From contig CBDEFM010000002.1 in NCBI GenBank assembly GCA_965237415.1, forward strand, positions 3,616,001-3,680,000: DNA of 64,000 nucleotides, written 5' to 3'. The DNA is from Alphaproteobacteria bacterium (lineage in GTDB: Bacteria > Pseudomonadota > Alphaproteobacteria > UBA828). This document shows, piece by piece, positions 20,412-26,716 of this stretch (positions are counted from its first letter, which is position 1; the number at the start of each line of letters is the position of its first letter). The notes under the pieces were generated by a model. The model worked only from the letters and a program-made list of their open reading frames with translations, ran no database searches and had not been told where the DNA came from. The translations under genes were made by a program, and so were the position numbers.

Positions 20412-21914
20412 ATGTACGGCGTGGAGCTCTATGCGGCGGTTCGACTGGCGGTTGTCGACGAGGGTTTGAGCCATCACGAGGCGGGCCGTCGGTTCGGCAT
20501 CGACCGTCGCACGGTGAAGAAGATGCTGAGCTATTCGGCGCCGCCGGGCTACCGCCGGACGAAGCCGGTCAGGCGGCCCAAGCTGGACGGGTTCACCGGC
20601 ATCGTCGACGCGATCCTGGAGGCGGACACGGATCCGGATGTGCCGCGCAAGCAGCGCCACACGGCGCACCGGATCTTCGAGCGGCTGCGGGACGAGTACG
20701 GGTTCACCGGCGGCTATACCATCGTGAAGGACTATGTGCGTTCCCGGCGGCAATCGACGCGCGAGGCCTTCGTTCCACTGCATCACCCGCCGGGCCATGC
20801 CCAGGTCGACTTCGGCGAGGCGGTGGTGGAGCTGCGGGGGCAGCGGGAGAAGGTCGCCTTCTTCTGCCTGATCCTGCCCCATTCCAACGTCTGGTTCGTC
20901 AAGGCCTATCCCCGGGAGACGACCGAGGCCTTCCTCGACGGCCATGTCAGCGCCTTCGCCTTCCTCGGCGGGGTTCCGCGCTCGATCCTCTACGACAACA
21001 CCACCCTTGCGGTGGCGCGGATCCTGGGGGACGGCACGCGCCGCAGGACGCAGGCGTTCTCACATCTTCAGTCGCACTACCTGTTCCGCGACCGCTTCGG
21101 CCGGCCCGGCAAGGGCAACGACAAGGGCAAGGTCGAGGCCCTGGTGAAGACGGCACGGCGCCGGTTCATGGTGCCGATCCCGAAGGTGCATGACCTGTCG
21201 GTCCTGAACGAGCGGCTGATGGCGCGCTGCCTGGAGCGGCTCGACGCGCTGGAGGAAGGCGACCGGGCGGCGGCGTTGCTCGCCGATCTCGACGCCCTGC
21301 GCGATCTGCCCGCCGTCCCCTTCGAGGCCTGCGAGCATGTGCCGGGCCAGGTCTCGTCCACGGCCCTGGTGCGCTACCGGCTGGTGGACTACTCGGCGCC
21401 GGCGGTGCACGCCCACAAGAAGGTGACGGTCAAGGGCTATGTCGACCGGGTCGAGATCGCGCTCGGCGCCGGGATCGTCGCCCGCCATCGGCGCTCCTAT
21501 GTCCGCGGCGACGTCGTCTACGACCCGCTGCACTATCTGTCGCTGCTGGAGAGGAAGCCGGGCGCCCTGGACCAGGCGGCGCCGCTGCGGGGGTGGAAGC
21601 TCGATCCGGCCTTCGACACGCTGCGCCGCCTCCTCGAAGCCCGCTTCGGCCCGCGCGGCAAGCGCGAATACATCCAGACCCTGCGCCTGCTGGAGGACTT
21701 TCCGGAGCGCCAGGTGACGGCCGCGGTGCAGGACGCGGTGAAGCGGCGCGTGATCGGCTTCGATGCCGTCAAGCACCTGCTGCTGGCGTGCATCGAGAAG
21801 CGGCCGGCCCGTCTCGACCTGGCGCGCTACCCGCACCTACCCCAGCCCTTCGTCGCTGCCACCCGGGCCGCCGATTACGCCACCCTGCTGGCCGGAGGGG
21901 CCGGCCATGGCTGA
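20412..21914 (+). CDS. istA: IS21 transposase IstA
   Basis: QVDFG, LYDN, KGKVE (DDE); KQRHTAHRIFERL. Confidence 0.93.
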   Translation: MYGVELYAAVRLAVVDEGLSHHEAGRRFGIDRRTVKKMLSYSAPPGYRRTKPVRRPKLDGFTGIVDAILEADTDPDVPRKQRHTAHRIFERLRDEYGFTGGYTIVKDYVRSRRQSTREAFVPLHHPPGHAQVDFGEAVVELRGQREKVAFFCLILPHSNVWFVKAYPRETTEAFLDGHVSAFAFLGGVPRSILYDNTTLAVARILGDGTRRRTQAFSHLQSHYLFRDRFGRPGKGNDKGKVEALVKTARRRFMVPIPKVHDLSVLNERLMARCLERLDALEEGDRAAALLADLDALRDLPAVPFEACEHVPGQVSSTALVRYRLVDYSAPAVHAHKKVTVKGYVDRVEIALGAGIVARHRRSYVRGDVVYDPLHYLSLLERKPGALDQAAPLRGWKLDPAFDTLRRLLEARFGPRGKREYIQTLRLLEDFPERQVTAAVQDAVKRRVIGFDAVKHLLLACIEKRPARLDLARYPHLPQPFVAATRAADYATLLAGGAGHG

Positions 21915-22238
21915 AGCGCCCCGCATCCTGCTCGAGCATCACCTGAAGAAGCTGAAGCTGCCGACCTTTCTGCGCGAGTACGAGAAACTGGCGCGCCAGT
22001 GCGCGGCCGAGGGGCTGGATCATGTGCGGTTCCTGGCCCGGCTGGTGGAGCTGGAGATGATCGACCGCGAGCGCCGCCTGGTCGAGCGCCGCATCAGGCA
22101 GGCCAGGTTCCCCGTCGTCAAACAACTCGAGAGCTTCGACTTCAAGGCGATCCCCAGTCTCAACAAGATGCTGGTGCTGGATCTCGCGCGCGGCGATTAC
22201 ATCGACCGCCGCGAGAACGCGATCCTGCTCGGGCCCTC
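21907..22238 (+). pseudogene. istB: IstB N-terminal half, interrupted at Walker A
   Basis: LKKLKLPTF...FDFKAIPSL...ENAILLGPS. Confidence 0.9.
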
Positions 22239-22270
22239 GAGTCCGAGTGCATAATGCACACCTCGCTACG

Positions 22271-24330
22271 TTATTGAAAATCCAGCTGTTCCTGGTTCGG
22301 ATCGGCTGTTAGCGGGCGCGATTGGCGCAGGTCAGTGCCGTACAGGGCGTCTATCAGCGCCTCCGGGATGGCCCATGGCCCTCCCTTGCACACCTGCGTG
22401 GCGTCGATTGTGCCGCCCGCAATCAACCGCAGCACCGTCATCTTGCTGATGCCGAGCCGTGCGGCGGCATCGGTCAGCGTCAGCTCGCCCCGCTCCGCCA
22501 TCTCGCCTGATCGGAAGACGGCAACGCCACGGCTATTGCGGAAGGTGCGCACCCGCGCTTCCGTCCACGAGTTGCCTCGCCCGGTCTTCTTGCCGAGGCG
22601 GTTGAGCGTGGCCGCGATCGCGCCGTCCGGCAGCTGCCTCGCCAGTCCGCGAACCAGGTCGACCACCTCGGCGCTCGCCGCCCAGCGATGCTGTCCCCTA
22701 CGGTTGCGCGGCACGCTCAGACGCGTGTGGTCGCCGCCACGCCAGTGGAGAAGAAGGTCAACGCAGCCATCGGCCAGCGTGACGACGATCTCCTCCAGAA
22801 CCGCGCGCAGGATGGCCTTGCGCGTCTCGGCGGTGGCATCGGGGCGCGACCACGCCGTCGAGAGATCATCGCCCAGCGCCATCAAGCGCTGTTTCTCCGC
22901 GCATGACGGTGCCTCCGGACGGGCGGCCGCAGTGGCGGCGAGCCGCTCCTCCTGCCGGCGCACCTCCGCCAGCCGGTCGTTCCACCGTCGCTCCAGCTCG
23001 GCCGCGACAAGGCGGTTAGCTGGATCGACGGCATCGTATTGGCGCTGTGCCAGATCGGCCTCGTAGCGCGCCTGCGTCAGCGCCAGCTCCGCCTGCCGTC
23101 GGATCTCGGCGTTGTCGCTCTCACGGGTCTCGATGGCGGCCAGCGCCGCTTCGACGCCGAGCGGAGATAGCAGTCGCAGCACTGCATCGCCGACCGCAGT
23201 ATCCACGCGCAAGCCGCCGAAGGCGATGCACGGCCTGGTGCCGTGGTTGACATGCGCGCCTTGGCAGCCGTAACGGACGCAGTACCCCTTGGTGCCGCTG
23301 TAGTGGACGTGCACACGCCGGCCGCAGTGTCCGCAGCGCAGCAGGCCCGCGAGCAGCGCATCGCCGCGGCGCACGGCGCCCCTTGCCATCAAGCCCCGCA
23401 GTTGGCGTTGTCGGCGATCAGACGCTGGTTCCTCTCGTACTCGTCCCAGGAAACGTAGCCTTCGTGGTGATCGCGGATCAACACGTCCCAGTCCGCGCGA
23501 TCGCGGCGAAAGCCGCGCGTGACGCGCTTGCGTCCGTTCTCGACGGTCACGCGGCTCTCCGTCCGGCCAAACGCGTACGCGCCGGCGTAGACGGGGTTGG
23601 TCATCAGCTTGTGGACGGTGCCGTAGACCGGCGGCTTCCAGACAATATGGCGCTCCTTGCCAACGATCCTGACGGCCGGCAGCAGCACTTCCTCCTGCCG
23701 CAGCCAGAGGTGGACCTGGCGGATGCTCCGGAACTCCGCGAACTTGCGGAACACGAGATCGATTGCCTCACGCACGCGCCGGTCGGGATCCTTGGCGATC
23801 CGGTCGCATCGGACCTTCACGTAGCCCACCGCGACGCTGAGGAATAGCTCGCCACGGGACGCCTTCAGGCGCAGCGCCTCGAGCGAGCGCTGGCGCAGCG
23901 TCGAGAGCTCCATCTCCGACAGCGTCCCCTTCATACCCAGCAATAGACGGTCGTTCGGCAGGCGAGGATCATACAAGCCGTCCTCGTCGCCCAGCAGGCA
24001 GCCCACAAGCGCGCAGAACTCCAGCAGCGTGTGCCAGTCGCGGCCGTTTCGAGCGAGCCTCGAAGCCTCCAGCGACAGCACGATGCCGACGCGCCCTTCG
24101 CAGATCGCCAGCAGCAGCCGATCGAAGCCCGGCCGCGACGTTCCGCCTCCAGAGCGGCCGAGATCCTCGTCGATAATCACGGGCTCGTCCCAGCCCAGAC
24201 CGCGAGCCCGATCCGCAAGGCCGTACTGACGACGGCGGCTCTCGTGGTTGTGCCGCAGCTGGTCCGGCGTCGACTGCCGAATGTAGACGACCGCCTCGCG
24301 CGCCAGATGGTCAGGCGCGATCTTGTTCAT
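22271..24330 (-). pseudogene. Large serine recombinase, split by a 1-nt frameshift at ~23395 (ORFs 23389-24330 and 22271-23392)
   Basis: YIRQST catalytic Ser, SRLARN, NPVYAG, CGHCG zinc ribbon, coiled coil, C-terminal HTH. Confidence 0.88.
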
Positions 24331-24496
24331 CGCCCGCCTCCTTCTCCGTGGCCGTCCCGTCCGCCATGTCCTCCGTCGGGTTCGCTGCCGCTTCGAGCAG
24401 CAGCGCCGCCAGTATCGGGATTACCGCCCCTCGCATCGCCGGCGTGAGTGCCGGACCCGGCTCCAGTAGTTCCAACAGCTCTCCCTGTCTTCCCAT
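24311..24496 (-). CDS. Small hypothetical protein of the LSR element
   Basis: GGGAGG RBS; overlaps the LSR start; overlaps the neighbouring ORF in another frame. Confidence 0.4.
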   Translation of the reverse strand: MGRQGELLELLEPGPALTPAMRGAVIPILAALLLEAAANPTEDMADGTATEKEAGDEQDRA

Positions 24497-24799
24497 GTCG
24501 CCCTCCCAAATCCATGCGGGAGGGCGATGGTAGAACAGCGTCGATGACCGAACGGAGGTCGCGCAGGGCGTCCAGCGCGATCCGCGGCTGATCCGTCACC
24601 GTCATCGCCGCCGCGTCTGGAAAGCACATCCAGGTCGGTATCTGCGCCAGCGTGCCATCCGGCTGGCGGACGACGTAGATCATGGTCCCCTTGAAGCGGT
24701 GGCGCCGAACCACTTCCACGCGCTGGCCCGTGCGGGGGTGGAAGGGGTAGTGGATCTTCGTCGGACCGCCCTGGTATCGGGCAGTGTGTGGCTGTTCCG
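24327..24799 (-). CDS. LSR-associated accessory ORF (Y4bD/DUF5372-like) whose 5' end is cut by the att junction
   Basis: Frame open to the element end: ..HTARYQGGPTKIHYPFHPRTGQRVEVVRR..PDGT..IPTWM; stop overlaps the LSR ATG (ATGA). Confidence 0.6.
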
Positions 24800-24801
24800 T
24801 C

Positions 24802-25234
24802 AGGCGTCGGCAAGACGCATGTCGCGCTCGCCCTCGGGCTTGCCGCCTGCCAGAAGGGCCTCTCCGTGCGCTTCACCACCGCCTCTCACCTGGTCCACGA
24901 GATGATCGAGGCGCGCGACGAGAAGAGGCTCCTCCGCCTCCAGGACCAGCTCGCCAGGGTCAATCTCCTGATCGTCGACGAGCTCGGCTACGTGCCCCTC
25001 TCGCAGACCGGAAGCGAACTGCTGTTCGACGTCTTCAGCCGGCGCTACGAAAACGGCGCCACAATCGTGACCTCAAACCTGCCCTTCCAGGAATGGACAA
25101 CGGTCTTCGCCAGCGAACGCCTCACCGGCGCGCTGCTCGACCGCATCACCCACCATGTCCATATCCTGGAGATGAACGCAGACAGCTACCGGCTCAAGCA
25201 GAGCCGGTCACGACGCCGGCTGCCGTCCGAATAA
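24802..25234 (+). pseudogene. istB: IstB C-terminal half
   Basis: GVGKTH, LLIVDELGY, TSNLPF.EW, LLDRITHH, SYRL. Confidence 0.9.
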
Positions 25235-25264: not shown

Positions 25265-26716
25265 TATATGGACGCCTCCCGGTGGCAAGGGCCGATTCGG
25301 TGCTCCGGGAGAACCAGGTTGCAGTTCTATATCCGGCCTGTTCGTGCAGGCTGGTGCCTGCTGGCCCTGATGGAATCAGCCGATCCGCGCCTCATTCTCC
25401 CACTGGGCTTCTTGCCCTTGGGCCTGTTCAGGCTTGGCGGATCGCGGTCTGACCTGTTCGCCATCACACTTCGTCGTACCTTGCGCAACCTCTTGGCGTG
25501 ACACCTCCTCCTGGTGGTAGGTGATCTCCGTGCCAGTCTTCCCTAACCGGGCTGACTGACGAAGTTCGGCCGGTAAGTTCGGTCGTGGGCCAGCAAGGCC
25601 CAGATCGTGCGTGCGGTCTTGTTGGCCAGTGCGACGGCGGCCACGTTCGCCGGCCGCCGCTCGGCCAGGCATGAGGCCCATTCCGGCGGCGATTTGCTCG
25701 TGGTGAGTACGGAGCGGGCGCCGTGGATCAGCAGGGTACGCAGGTAGGTGTCCCCACGCTTGGAGATGCCCCCACGCTTGGAGATGCCGAGCATGCGTAC
25801 CCGCCCGCCGGTGCCGCTGTGGCGCGGCACCAGACCGAGCCAGGCGGCAAACTCCCGGCCGGACCGGAATGCGGCGGGATCGCCCATCATGGCCACCGCG
25901 GCGGTCGCCGTCAGCACCCCGACGCCGGGGATCGCCGCAATCCGCCGGCTTGCGACATTGTCCCGATGCCAAAGCTTGAGCCGTCGCTCGATCTCGCCGA
26001 TCTCCTCATCCAGGCGGCTCACGCGTGCCCACTGCTCCCGCAAGGCCTCCACCACCATCGCCGGCAGACGCTCCGAGACCCGAGCGAGGGCCTCGGCCAT
26101 GCCTCGACGCAGACCGGCCCGGCCCTTCGGCATGACCTCGCCATATTCGGTCAGAAGGCCTCGCAGGCAGTTGATCTGCGCGGTGCGGAACTTCACCAAC
26201 TGCTGGCGCATGCGGTGCAGCGCCAGGATCGCCTGCTGCTCCTCGGTCTTGATCGCAACCGTCTTGATGCCGGGTTGTTGCACCGCCGTCCAGATCGCGC
26301 GTGCGTCGTGCGCATCGTTCTTGTTACCGCCCACGAAGGGCCGAACCATCTTCGCTGACAGCAGCCGTACCTCGTGGCCGAGCTCGCGCAGCCGCCGTCC
26401 CCAGTGCTGCGAACCGCCGCACGCCTCCAGCGCGACAAGGCACGGCGCGCGGTTGGCGAAGTGTTCGAGGAACTTCGTCCGTGTCAGCCGTAAATCCACG
26501 ATCTCGCCCGTTTCCATGTCGACCCAATACAGTTGAAACACCCGCTTCGCCGTATCCACGCCCACGACCGTTCTGCTAATCTTCATCCGGACCCTCCGGT
26601 TTGCCTGGGAAGACACCGAATCTTCCCCCTTGGCACTTAGATGCCGTCGGCCCGTGAGGGTCCACCTCAACCCTCCCGACCGCCGGCATCAGGGGTGGGA
26701 GGCGTCCATTCCATTC
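25265..26716 (-). mobile_element. IS1111-group (IS110 family) element inside IS21; ends approximate
   Basis: Subterminal IR ATGGACGCCTCCC (25268-25280) / GGGAGGCGTCCAT (26697-26709); long 3' non-coding region. Confidence 0.85.
25543..26586 (-). CDS. IS110/IS1111 transposase (DEDD)
   Basis: GVDTAK, LEACG, KNDAHDA, GLVPRHSGTGG; has an in-frame GISKRG duplication. Confidence 0.93.
   Translation of the reverse strand: MKISRTVVGVDTAKRVFQLYWVDMETGEIVDLRLTRTKFLEHFANRAPCLVALEACGGSQHWGRRLRELGHEVRLLSAKMVRPFVGGNKNDAHDARAIWTAVQQPGIKTVAIKTEEQQAILALHRMRQQLVKFRTAQINCLRGLLTEYGEVMPKGRAGLRRGMAEALARVSERLPAMVVEALREQWARVSRLDEEIGEIERRLKLWHRDNVASRRIAAIPGVGVLTATAAVAMMGDPAAFRSGREFAAWLGLVPRHSGTGGRVRMLGISKRGGISKRGDTYLRTLLIHGARSVLTTSKSPPEWASCLAERRPANVAAVALANKTARTIWALLAHDRTYRPNFVSQPG

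Follow-up and report, generated by a model that had tools for sequence, protein, structure and literature searches.

The DNA considered here is a 64,000-nucleotide (nt) stretch of an alphaproteobacterial genome (lineage UBA828; contig CBDEFM010000002.1, positions 3,616,001 to 3,680,000), referred to below as the window, in which positions 22237-24801 are occupied by a 2565-bp mobile element that has the dinucleotide TC as crossover core at each junction and is inserted into istB of an IS21-family insertion sequence (IS). The element carries three genes, all on the minus strand and in a single orientation, namely an open reading frame (ORF) of the Pfam family DUF5372, a 61-amino-acid (aa) ORF here called orfX, and a gene for a large serine recombinase (LSR). 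The body of the DUF5372 gene lies at one end of this element and its apparent translation start signals lie at the other, an arrangement that would make production of the protein dependent on the joining of the two ends.

The LSR gene (22271..24330) carries a disrupting 1-nt deletion near 23392-23397, and the N-terminal half of its product matches PF00239 Resolvase (1.6e-22) and PF07508 Recombinase (3.4e-12), while the C-terminal half matches PF13408 Zn_ribbon_recom (5.9e-9) and a match to HTH_17 is also present in the protein, a composition that fits the LSR domain set of resolvase catalytic, recombinase and zinc ribbon domains. Upstream of it, orfX (24311..24496) is read in the +1 frame relative to DUF5372 and reaches 17 nt into the LSR gene, and the DUF5372 ORF (24327..24800) closes with a TGA (24327-24329) that overlaps the LSR start codon as ATGA. 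The core stands at 22237..22238 on the side of the LSR stop (GA in gene orientation) and is repeated at 24800-24801 on the DUF5372 side. The interrupted target is represented by a 5' part of istB (plus strand, 21907..22236 in the ORF listing), preceded by istA (plus strand, 20412-21914), and by a 3' part (plus strand, 24802..25234, contained in ORF 24788..25234) that begins at the Walker A residues GVGKTH; rejoining the flanks restores IstB as ...ENAILLGPS / GVGKTHVALALG, with the break falling within the Walker-A codons GPS/GVGKT. The corresponding empty site, in which 22236 is joined to 24800, is found with 2 ambiguous letters in contigs of two public sequencing runs (X1 and X3). With a 2-bp core at both junctions and a precise empty site, this is an LSR integrative element.

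Apparent start signals at one end, gene body at the other

The minus-strand frame at the right end of the element, which reads ...HTARYQGGPTKIHYPFHP..., is open across 24801 into the flank, giving a stop-to-stop ORF of 181 codons (24327..24872). Its first ATG, GTG or TTG is the GTG at 24719, which is located after the motif YPFHP, the most conserved part of the protein and position 1 of the Pfam DUF5372 model (PF17342). The window ORF passes the gathering threshold of this model (26.9 bits, the cut-off being 25, over profile positions 1-43 of 78), and conservation reaches at least 90% at residues Y18, H21, P22 and G25 in an alignment of 67 rows. At the opposite end, following the minus strand onwards from the LSR stop (22271-22273), the right att arm (22239..22270) consists of 6 nt, the Shine-Dalgarno (SD)-like sequence GAGGTG (22264-22259), a 6-nt spacer, an ATG (22252-22250) and 11 nt leading to the core. 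When the ends are joined in silico at the core, an unbroken frame runs from this ATG into the DUF5372 ORF. Start signals at one end and a gene body at the other are therefore what the sequence contains, as the original prediction had described it: the startless ORF open to the junction, the outward-pointing GAGGTG-6 nt-ATG just after the LSR stop, and the in-frame joining at TC were each recovered at these positions, the last of them by a scripted join.

The two att arms mirror each other. Read outward, the right arm is CATAATGC and the left arm (minus strand, 24780..24799) is CATACTGC; outward from the core both consist of 11 nt followed by CATA.TGC, which in the left arm gives the codons CAC ACT GCC (H-T-A), so that the left-arm CAT, which belongs to the histidine codon, and the right-arm ATG are complementary. 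In the window this ATG also stands within a perfect 6-1-6 palindrome, GTGCAT T ATGCAC (22246-22258), which is not kept in relatives. In the integrated state the same ATG opens an antisense ORF of about 160 codons through istB (minus strand, 21769-22252; stop-to-stop 21769..22308), probably a by-product of GC-rich DNA.

Conservation among related elements

Relatives were collected by an LSR-based search of contigs from one genome per species, a search that took no account of DUF5372 or of start codons. It returned 590 pattern-matching stretches, 580 of which encode LSR relatives, and the best 80 (LSR 68-94% identical) were kept, so that the counts of 81 given below include the window. A DUF5372 ORF, recognized with a profile built from relatives, lies directly upstream of the LSR in 78/81 loci, the misses being L070 (with only 114 nt upstream), L085 and L095. 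Once L042 and L079, which have no YxFHP motif, were set aside, the N-terminus could be located in 76 loci; between the element boundary and this motif no ATG, GTG or TTG occurs in 61 of the 76, the window included, and a stop codon occurs in none. Beyond the other end of the LSR gene, the pattern AG[GA]TG.GCA.TATG follows the LSR stop in 70/81 loci. Joining the ends gave an in-frame, stop-free product in all 62 loci for which both ends were available (53 distinct junctions), with ATG as first codon in 58, ATA in 3 and AAG in 1. Among the 53 distinct sequences, the A of the right-arm ATG, four other positions and the left-arm GCC are invariant.

The reading of the N-terminal extension as coding sequence is supported by substitution counts from 19 phylogenetically independent pairs that are 76-98% identical. 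In element codons 7-16, which extend from the arm motif to the Pfam domain, 19 synonymous and 23 nonsynonymous changes are counted in the DUF5372 frame, compared with 7/35 and 9/35 in the other frames, and the DUF5372 domain itself shows 217 synonymous and 174 nonsynonymous changes versus 59/337 and 62/337. The synonymous excess in codons 7-16 indicates that this stretch is translated in the DUF5372 frame, though the element has no start codon upstream of it. According to the original prediction, a gene that is not truly split should be rejoined in frame in homologues at chance level, about one in three, or should show an internal start with no conservation upstream; instead every one of the 62 joins was in frame, and the region upstream of the possible internal starts is conserved with substitutions of the coding type.

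The core dinucleotide varies by subgroup and is identical at both junctions in 46 of the 62 loci (GT 19, GG 14, GA 5, TC 5, CT 2, GC 1). In the other 16 the two geometric core positions hold unlike dinucleotides, such as GG/GT or CT/CA, which may reflect insertion into non-cognate cores or later mutation. The antisense strand of the left flank encodes GxGK[ST] in 61 of the 70 loci that have at least 60 nt of left flank. Five loci are inserted in a gene which we take to be an IS66 transposase, and the presumed attB of L033 and L032 was derived from an IS66 motif; one further locus, L114, is inserted within another LSR gene. Judging from these flanks, the family lands mostly in genes of other mobile elements and parasitises them.

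Relatives of the element are also present in 217 plasmid records, mainly from rhizobia. Nitrospirillum viridazoti BR 11140 (L059) and Azospirillum sp. TSA2s, on its plasmid p1 (L143), are candidate culturable hosts of an intact copy. An Azospirillum plasmid copy annotated by RefSeq lists orfX, as a hypothetical protein, and the LSR, with no coding sequence for DUF5372 in a table that omits pseudogenes, which is expected for an ORF without a start. Short contigs of 2.56-2.63 kb, L099 and L055 among them, start and end within 1-2 bases of the element boundaries, which suggests that short-read assembly merged the multiple copies of a repeat; none of these contigs showed a terminal overlap of the kind that a circle would give. 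A pattern for attP made of the two end motifs 24 N apart, which covers only part of the motif variants of the family, matched 0/114 loci and 0 viral contigs, and seven metagenome stretches that did match it were set aside as chance matches with no LSR or DUF5372 context.

A second element family with the same kind of layout is present in the genome from which the window derives, as two elements, E1 (L140, C2:2281800-2287800) and E2 (L141, C2:3087000-3093000), whose DUF5372 proteins score 75-82 bits, whose LSR is 35% identical to that of the window's family, and which carry a 165-aa HTH_32/HTH_28 gene between DUF5372 and the LSR. One end of this family has GGAGGTG, 4 nt and an ATG that overlaps the LSR stop. 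The empty site of E2 was checked from its flanks, ...ALADW / WIEQEAK..., which correspond to ...DVSWWLDKEA... in an uninterrupted Bosea homologue; the two ends of E2 have 5 nt in common and are in frame when joined, the ATG and the arm triplet again being separated by 24 nt. In E2 the mirrored left-arm triplet is TTA and not CAT, so arm symmetry does not explain its ATG. E2 splits a gene resembling a 3'-phosphoadenosine-5'-phosphosulfate (PAPS) sulfotransferase gene next to a ParB-like gene, and the LSR gene of E1 is interrupted. A third lineage is represented by L136, in which the cores at the geometric positions differ and the boundaries are not fixed.

Predicted partner, mechanism and rival explanations

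An AlphaFold2 model of DUF5372 has a predicted local distance difference test (pLDDT) score of 83, with residues 11-90 confident, and shows a small SH3/KOW-like barrel followed by helices; the underlying alignment included one stray 20-residue row (L141:5070-5130). Structural matches are of a generic SH3/KOW/Tudor-like kind (best Foldseek E 0.023; VIA Z 5.5 with a root-mean-square deviation of 1.9 over 48 residues), from which a function is not derivable. No relation in sequence or fold to a known recombination directionality factor (RDF) was found, and a full-text literature search for 'DUF5372' returned 0 papers. A more specific indication comes from a complex model of the LSR of L035, whose frame is read through, with its own DUF5372, which reached an ipSAE (interaction prediction score from aligned errors) of 0.67 (0.63-0.73 in three runs), the best of 3 controls reaching 0.02; of 80 solved complexes 58 attain the ipSAE mark applied, as do 2 of 110 mismatched pairs, a calibration that, with custom alignments, is only roughly valid here. 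At least 80% of contacts are shared between the runs, with a partner pLDDT of at least 68, and the predicted interface involves the LSR zinc ribbon (332-337) and the coiled-coil bases (386-399 and 472-536), the contacts including LSR 505-510 and 529-536 and DUF5372 65-85. DUF5372 is thus predicted to bind the LSR around its zinc domain and coiled-coil bases, where directionality factors act; the phiC31 factor gp3 is said, in work by Fogg and colleagues of 2018, to operate through this region of its LSR. As regards the direction in which DUF5372 might influence recombination, the complex model is silent.

Neighbouring genes of the element overlap. The DUF5372 stop overlaps the LSR start in 64/76 loci, as ATGA in 52 and as TGATG or TAATG in 12, so that ribosomes translating DUF5372 would terminate at the LSR start codon. 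This overlap, together with that of the LSR stop and the junction ATG in E2, is consistent with the closed gene loop that had been proposed for the circular form. The proposal had also treated the element as consisting of two genes, an accessory ORF and the LSR, and had overlooked orfX, which comparative data identify as a third, conserved gene: its position, a ...DLFE...LP...LLxEA...DEQDHA pattern and the 17-nt overlap with the LSR gene are kept in most of 67 distinct loci, and the synonymous share peaks in its frame (108/234, versus 70/265 and 80/257). It could itself be a directionality factor. The DUF5372 frame continues through the orfX region without amino-acid constraint, and the openness of this tail was rejected as proof of selection for coupling, since a +1-frame orfX with a high G+C content at third codon positions suppresses stops.

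These features can be assembled into a mechanism in which attP would lie inside the 5' end of the DUF5372 gene, with the SD sequence, the ATG and about four codons at one end of the element and the remainder at the other. In the integrated state the DUF5372 body would be devoid of an initiation signal, the antisense strand of the Walker-A target would offer no in-frame start, and the protein would not be made; excision by the LSR, or a head-to-tail tandem, would join the ends and complete the gene. Ribosomes would then start at the junction ATG and read DUF5372 as far as the stop that overlaps the LSR start codon, and the product would bind the LSR at the interface predicted above. The circle would in this way make a recombinase-modifying factor that is unavailable to the integrated copy, and on the most coherent reading this factor would favour or lock integration, or at least mark the excised state, until an integration event switches it off again. 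That DUF5372 is completed by excision at an attP-split junction is the explanation we consider probable.

Several observations weigh against it. The right-arm ATG forms part of the inverted arm motif, and the distance of 11+2+11 = 24 nt is set by recombinase geometry, which means that in-frame joining is not independent evidence; likewise, all loci are homologous, and the 62 in-frame joins may be counted as one evolutionary event kept by recombinase constraints. An SD sequence followed after 4-8 nt by ATG is in itself not rare in the window (3 matches versus 2.1 expected), so the weight rests on position and conservation and not on the motif. A G-rich stretch also adjoins the left-arm motif, and part of the 'SD' may accordingly be recombinase-binding sequence, while synonymous changes are not in excess in the six arm codons (5/14), as would be expected if DNA binding constrains the arm. 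Possible internal starts exist as well, in the form of a GTG or TTG 1-4 codons before the motif in 15/76 loci and of a GTG directly before THPFHP in both E1 and E2. No circle junction, with the element's ends joined back to each other, was present in four runs (X1, X3, and the RNA runs X17 and X18), which were searched as Logan contigs that drop rare forms, so that this absence counts neither for nor against the model, and no transcript start or end and no junction peptide were seen; contigs from RNA cover parts of the element, one of them spanning the flank, DUF5372 and the LSR start, and such contigs cannot show transcription, strand or ends. With a simple consensus, promoter and terminator scans were empty and no sigma-70-like promoter was seen in 22000-25000, and the best promoter match across the in-silico junction reaches 8 of 12 positions and is wholly within one end. 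Finally, as a canonical RDF, that is an excision factor, DUF5372 would be synthesized in the wrong order, once excision is over; a protein confined to the excised state would fit an integration-favouring or state-marking role better than that of a classical excision factor. The original proposal that attP lies inside the gene, which is split on integration, therefore retains the layout and its conservation and loses in-frame joining as a separate line of support, and of the circle and the junction peptide that it foresaw neither was seen.

The symmetry of the arms lends itself to a different account, in which the SD-like sequence and ATG are only recombinase-binding, DUF5372 starts internally or non-canonically near YPFHP in both states, and the frame across the junction is a frozen accident. 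The arm motifs are indeed mirror images at equal distance from the core; however, the left-arm triplet varies by family (CAY, CTT, TTA, AAT), whereas the five lineages examined all retain the right-arm ATG. Similarly, the distance from the SD sequence to the ATG is 6 nt in the window's family and 4-5 nt in the others, a shift of up to 2 nt, while that from the ATG to the core is constant at 11 nt, a pattern more in keeping with a translation signal than with a fixed protein-DNA contact. The GTG and TTG codons mentioned above, a Pfam model that starts at the motif, and a subgroup in which GAGGTG stands 3 nt before an ATC codon, a candidate non-canonical ATC/ATT start, are all compatible with initiation close to YPFHP, but the 61 loci that have no canonical start there include the window, and a synonymous excess in codons 7-16 that is confined to the DUF5372 frame implies that translation begins farther upstream. 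We consider this account unlikely. Another possibility is that DUF5372 is made while integrated, as a fusion that starts in the target flank, with expression set by the insertion site. The frame is open into the flank over the 181-codon ORF described above, and gene callers start the homologues P0004 and P0007 in flanking sequence; in the window, however, the flank contains no in-frame ATG, GTG or TTG, a canonical Walker-A target provides no in-frame start because the antisense ATG of its histidine codon is in another frame, and conservation is seen in the right-arm start signals but not in the flanks, which vary from copy to copy, all of which renders such a fusion improbable. It is very improbable indeed that the element is degenerate and the ORF a pseudogene, decaying or truncated at its 5' end: the LSR is frameshifted in all three full copies of this genome and annotation pipelines do not call the ORF, but it stands beside an intact LSR in 62 of the 78 loci that possess it, its domain is under the strong purifying selection documented by the counts given above, and its structure is confidently modelled.

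Returning to completion by excision, its most specific form would be a self-resetting switch of reversed polarity, in which the integrated element makes the LSR only and is able to excise, and the circle's DUF5372, positioned at the base of the LSR coiled coil, commits the recombinase to integration, an event that destroys the gene; we hold this to be rather doubtful. If true, DUF5372 would sense the state of the element throughout a large and hitherto undescribed family of IS-like LSR mini-elements, which are parasites of other mobile elements, from the Walker-A codons of IstB to IS66 transposase genes and an LSR gene.

The proposed arrangement combines ideas known from other mobile elements. 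Integrases of the SSV type, the 'suicidal' tyrosine integrases of archaeal viruses and plasmids, have attP within their own ORF, which integration splits and excision rebuilds, as described in PMC7253208. The likeness, judged from in-silico joining in 62/62 loci and in E2, is that attP would lie inside an element ORF partitioned by integration; the differences are that in the SSV type the tyrosine integrase is itself cut in mid-ORF, in archaeal hosts, whereas here a bacterial LSR stays whole and a small accessory gene is split, with only the SD sequence, the ATG and about four codons separated from the body. Expression created by joined ends is also familiar from the circle junction promoters of IS elements, and tnpX of Tn4451/Tn4453, an LSR like the recombinase of the present element, is reportedly expressed from a joint promoter of the circular intermediate. 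For ICEclc (Pcirc) and ICEKp1 (P3'end), a promoter created or repositioned by the joining of ends is reported in PMC13023037. What these joint-promoter systems share with the element is state-dependent expression brought about by joining the ends; they differ in that they switch transcription, mostly of the recombinase gene, whereas here a translation start would be joined to an ORF, and, unlike in the Tn4451 type, no promoter-like site spans the junction when a simple consensus is applied.

Serine integrases are controlled by RDFs such as phiC31 gp3, Bxb1 gp47, A118 gp44 and GirX. The last of these, with GirC, is a small LSR partner from a non-phage LSR element, according to PMC5595907. DUF5372 resembles RDFs in being a small element-encoded protein with a predicted position on its own LSR, near the zinc domain and the coiled-coil bases, and differs in that known RDF genes are intact when integrated and trigger excision upon expression, whereas the DUF5372 gene is incomplete exactly then. 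The Pfam entry DUF5372 has no described function, and its model, which begins at the motif, omits the extension encoded at the junction. In the literature outside subscription journals no account was found of an LSR element with an accessory gene split by attP, in agreement with the original prediction, which knew of none for such minimal elements; the layout would be a form of state-dependent expression that combines known ideas and was not found in print. LSRs are leading tools for DNA insertion, and the chief difficulty in this regard is to control the direction in which they act, the known directionality factors being few, mutually unrelated and hard to find. DUF5372 is a widespread family, encoded next to its LSR and modelled at the site of directionality factors, and through the layout of its gene it would act as a built-in sensor of excision; if this holds, translational gene completion at attP would join the short list of means by which mobile elements sense whether they are in or out, and would offer a compact and portable switch.

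Copies in the same genome and neighbouring features

The frameshift in the LSR gene, which had been noted from the sequence of the window, is real in the assembly and present in 3/3 full copies of the element. These copies differ by 2 single-nucleotide polymorphisms and all occupy one istB site, the upstream istB flank of which exists in four copies (100, 100, 92 and 87% identical); the full element is found in three of them (100, 92 and 87%), and the second 100% copy, on contig 1, holds a 498-bp element fragment. A G inserted behind 23397 restores the LSR frame, and this form accounts for a depth of 18 of 18 in run X3 and for a minority, 78.5 of 708, in run X1. As all three full copies are broken, the element would need an intact relative's LSR in trans in this genome. 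The frameshift site is read through in L035 and in a 91% variant in the same genome (variant D, C2:3757516-3759800), in which the LSR C-terminus is replaced. Fragments of the element are located at C2:66043-66742, C2:3147393-3147898 and C1:22800-23297, and two of the three look like separated halves of one copy. Beyond the IS21 remnant, the window contains a 375-aa ORF (minus strand, 25543-26670) that presumably encodes an IS110-family transposase, to judge from its N-terminal motif.

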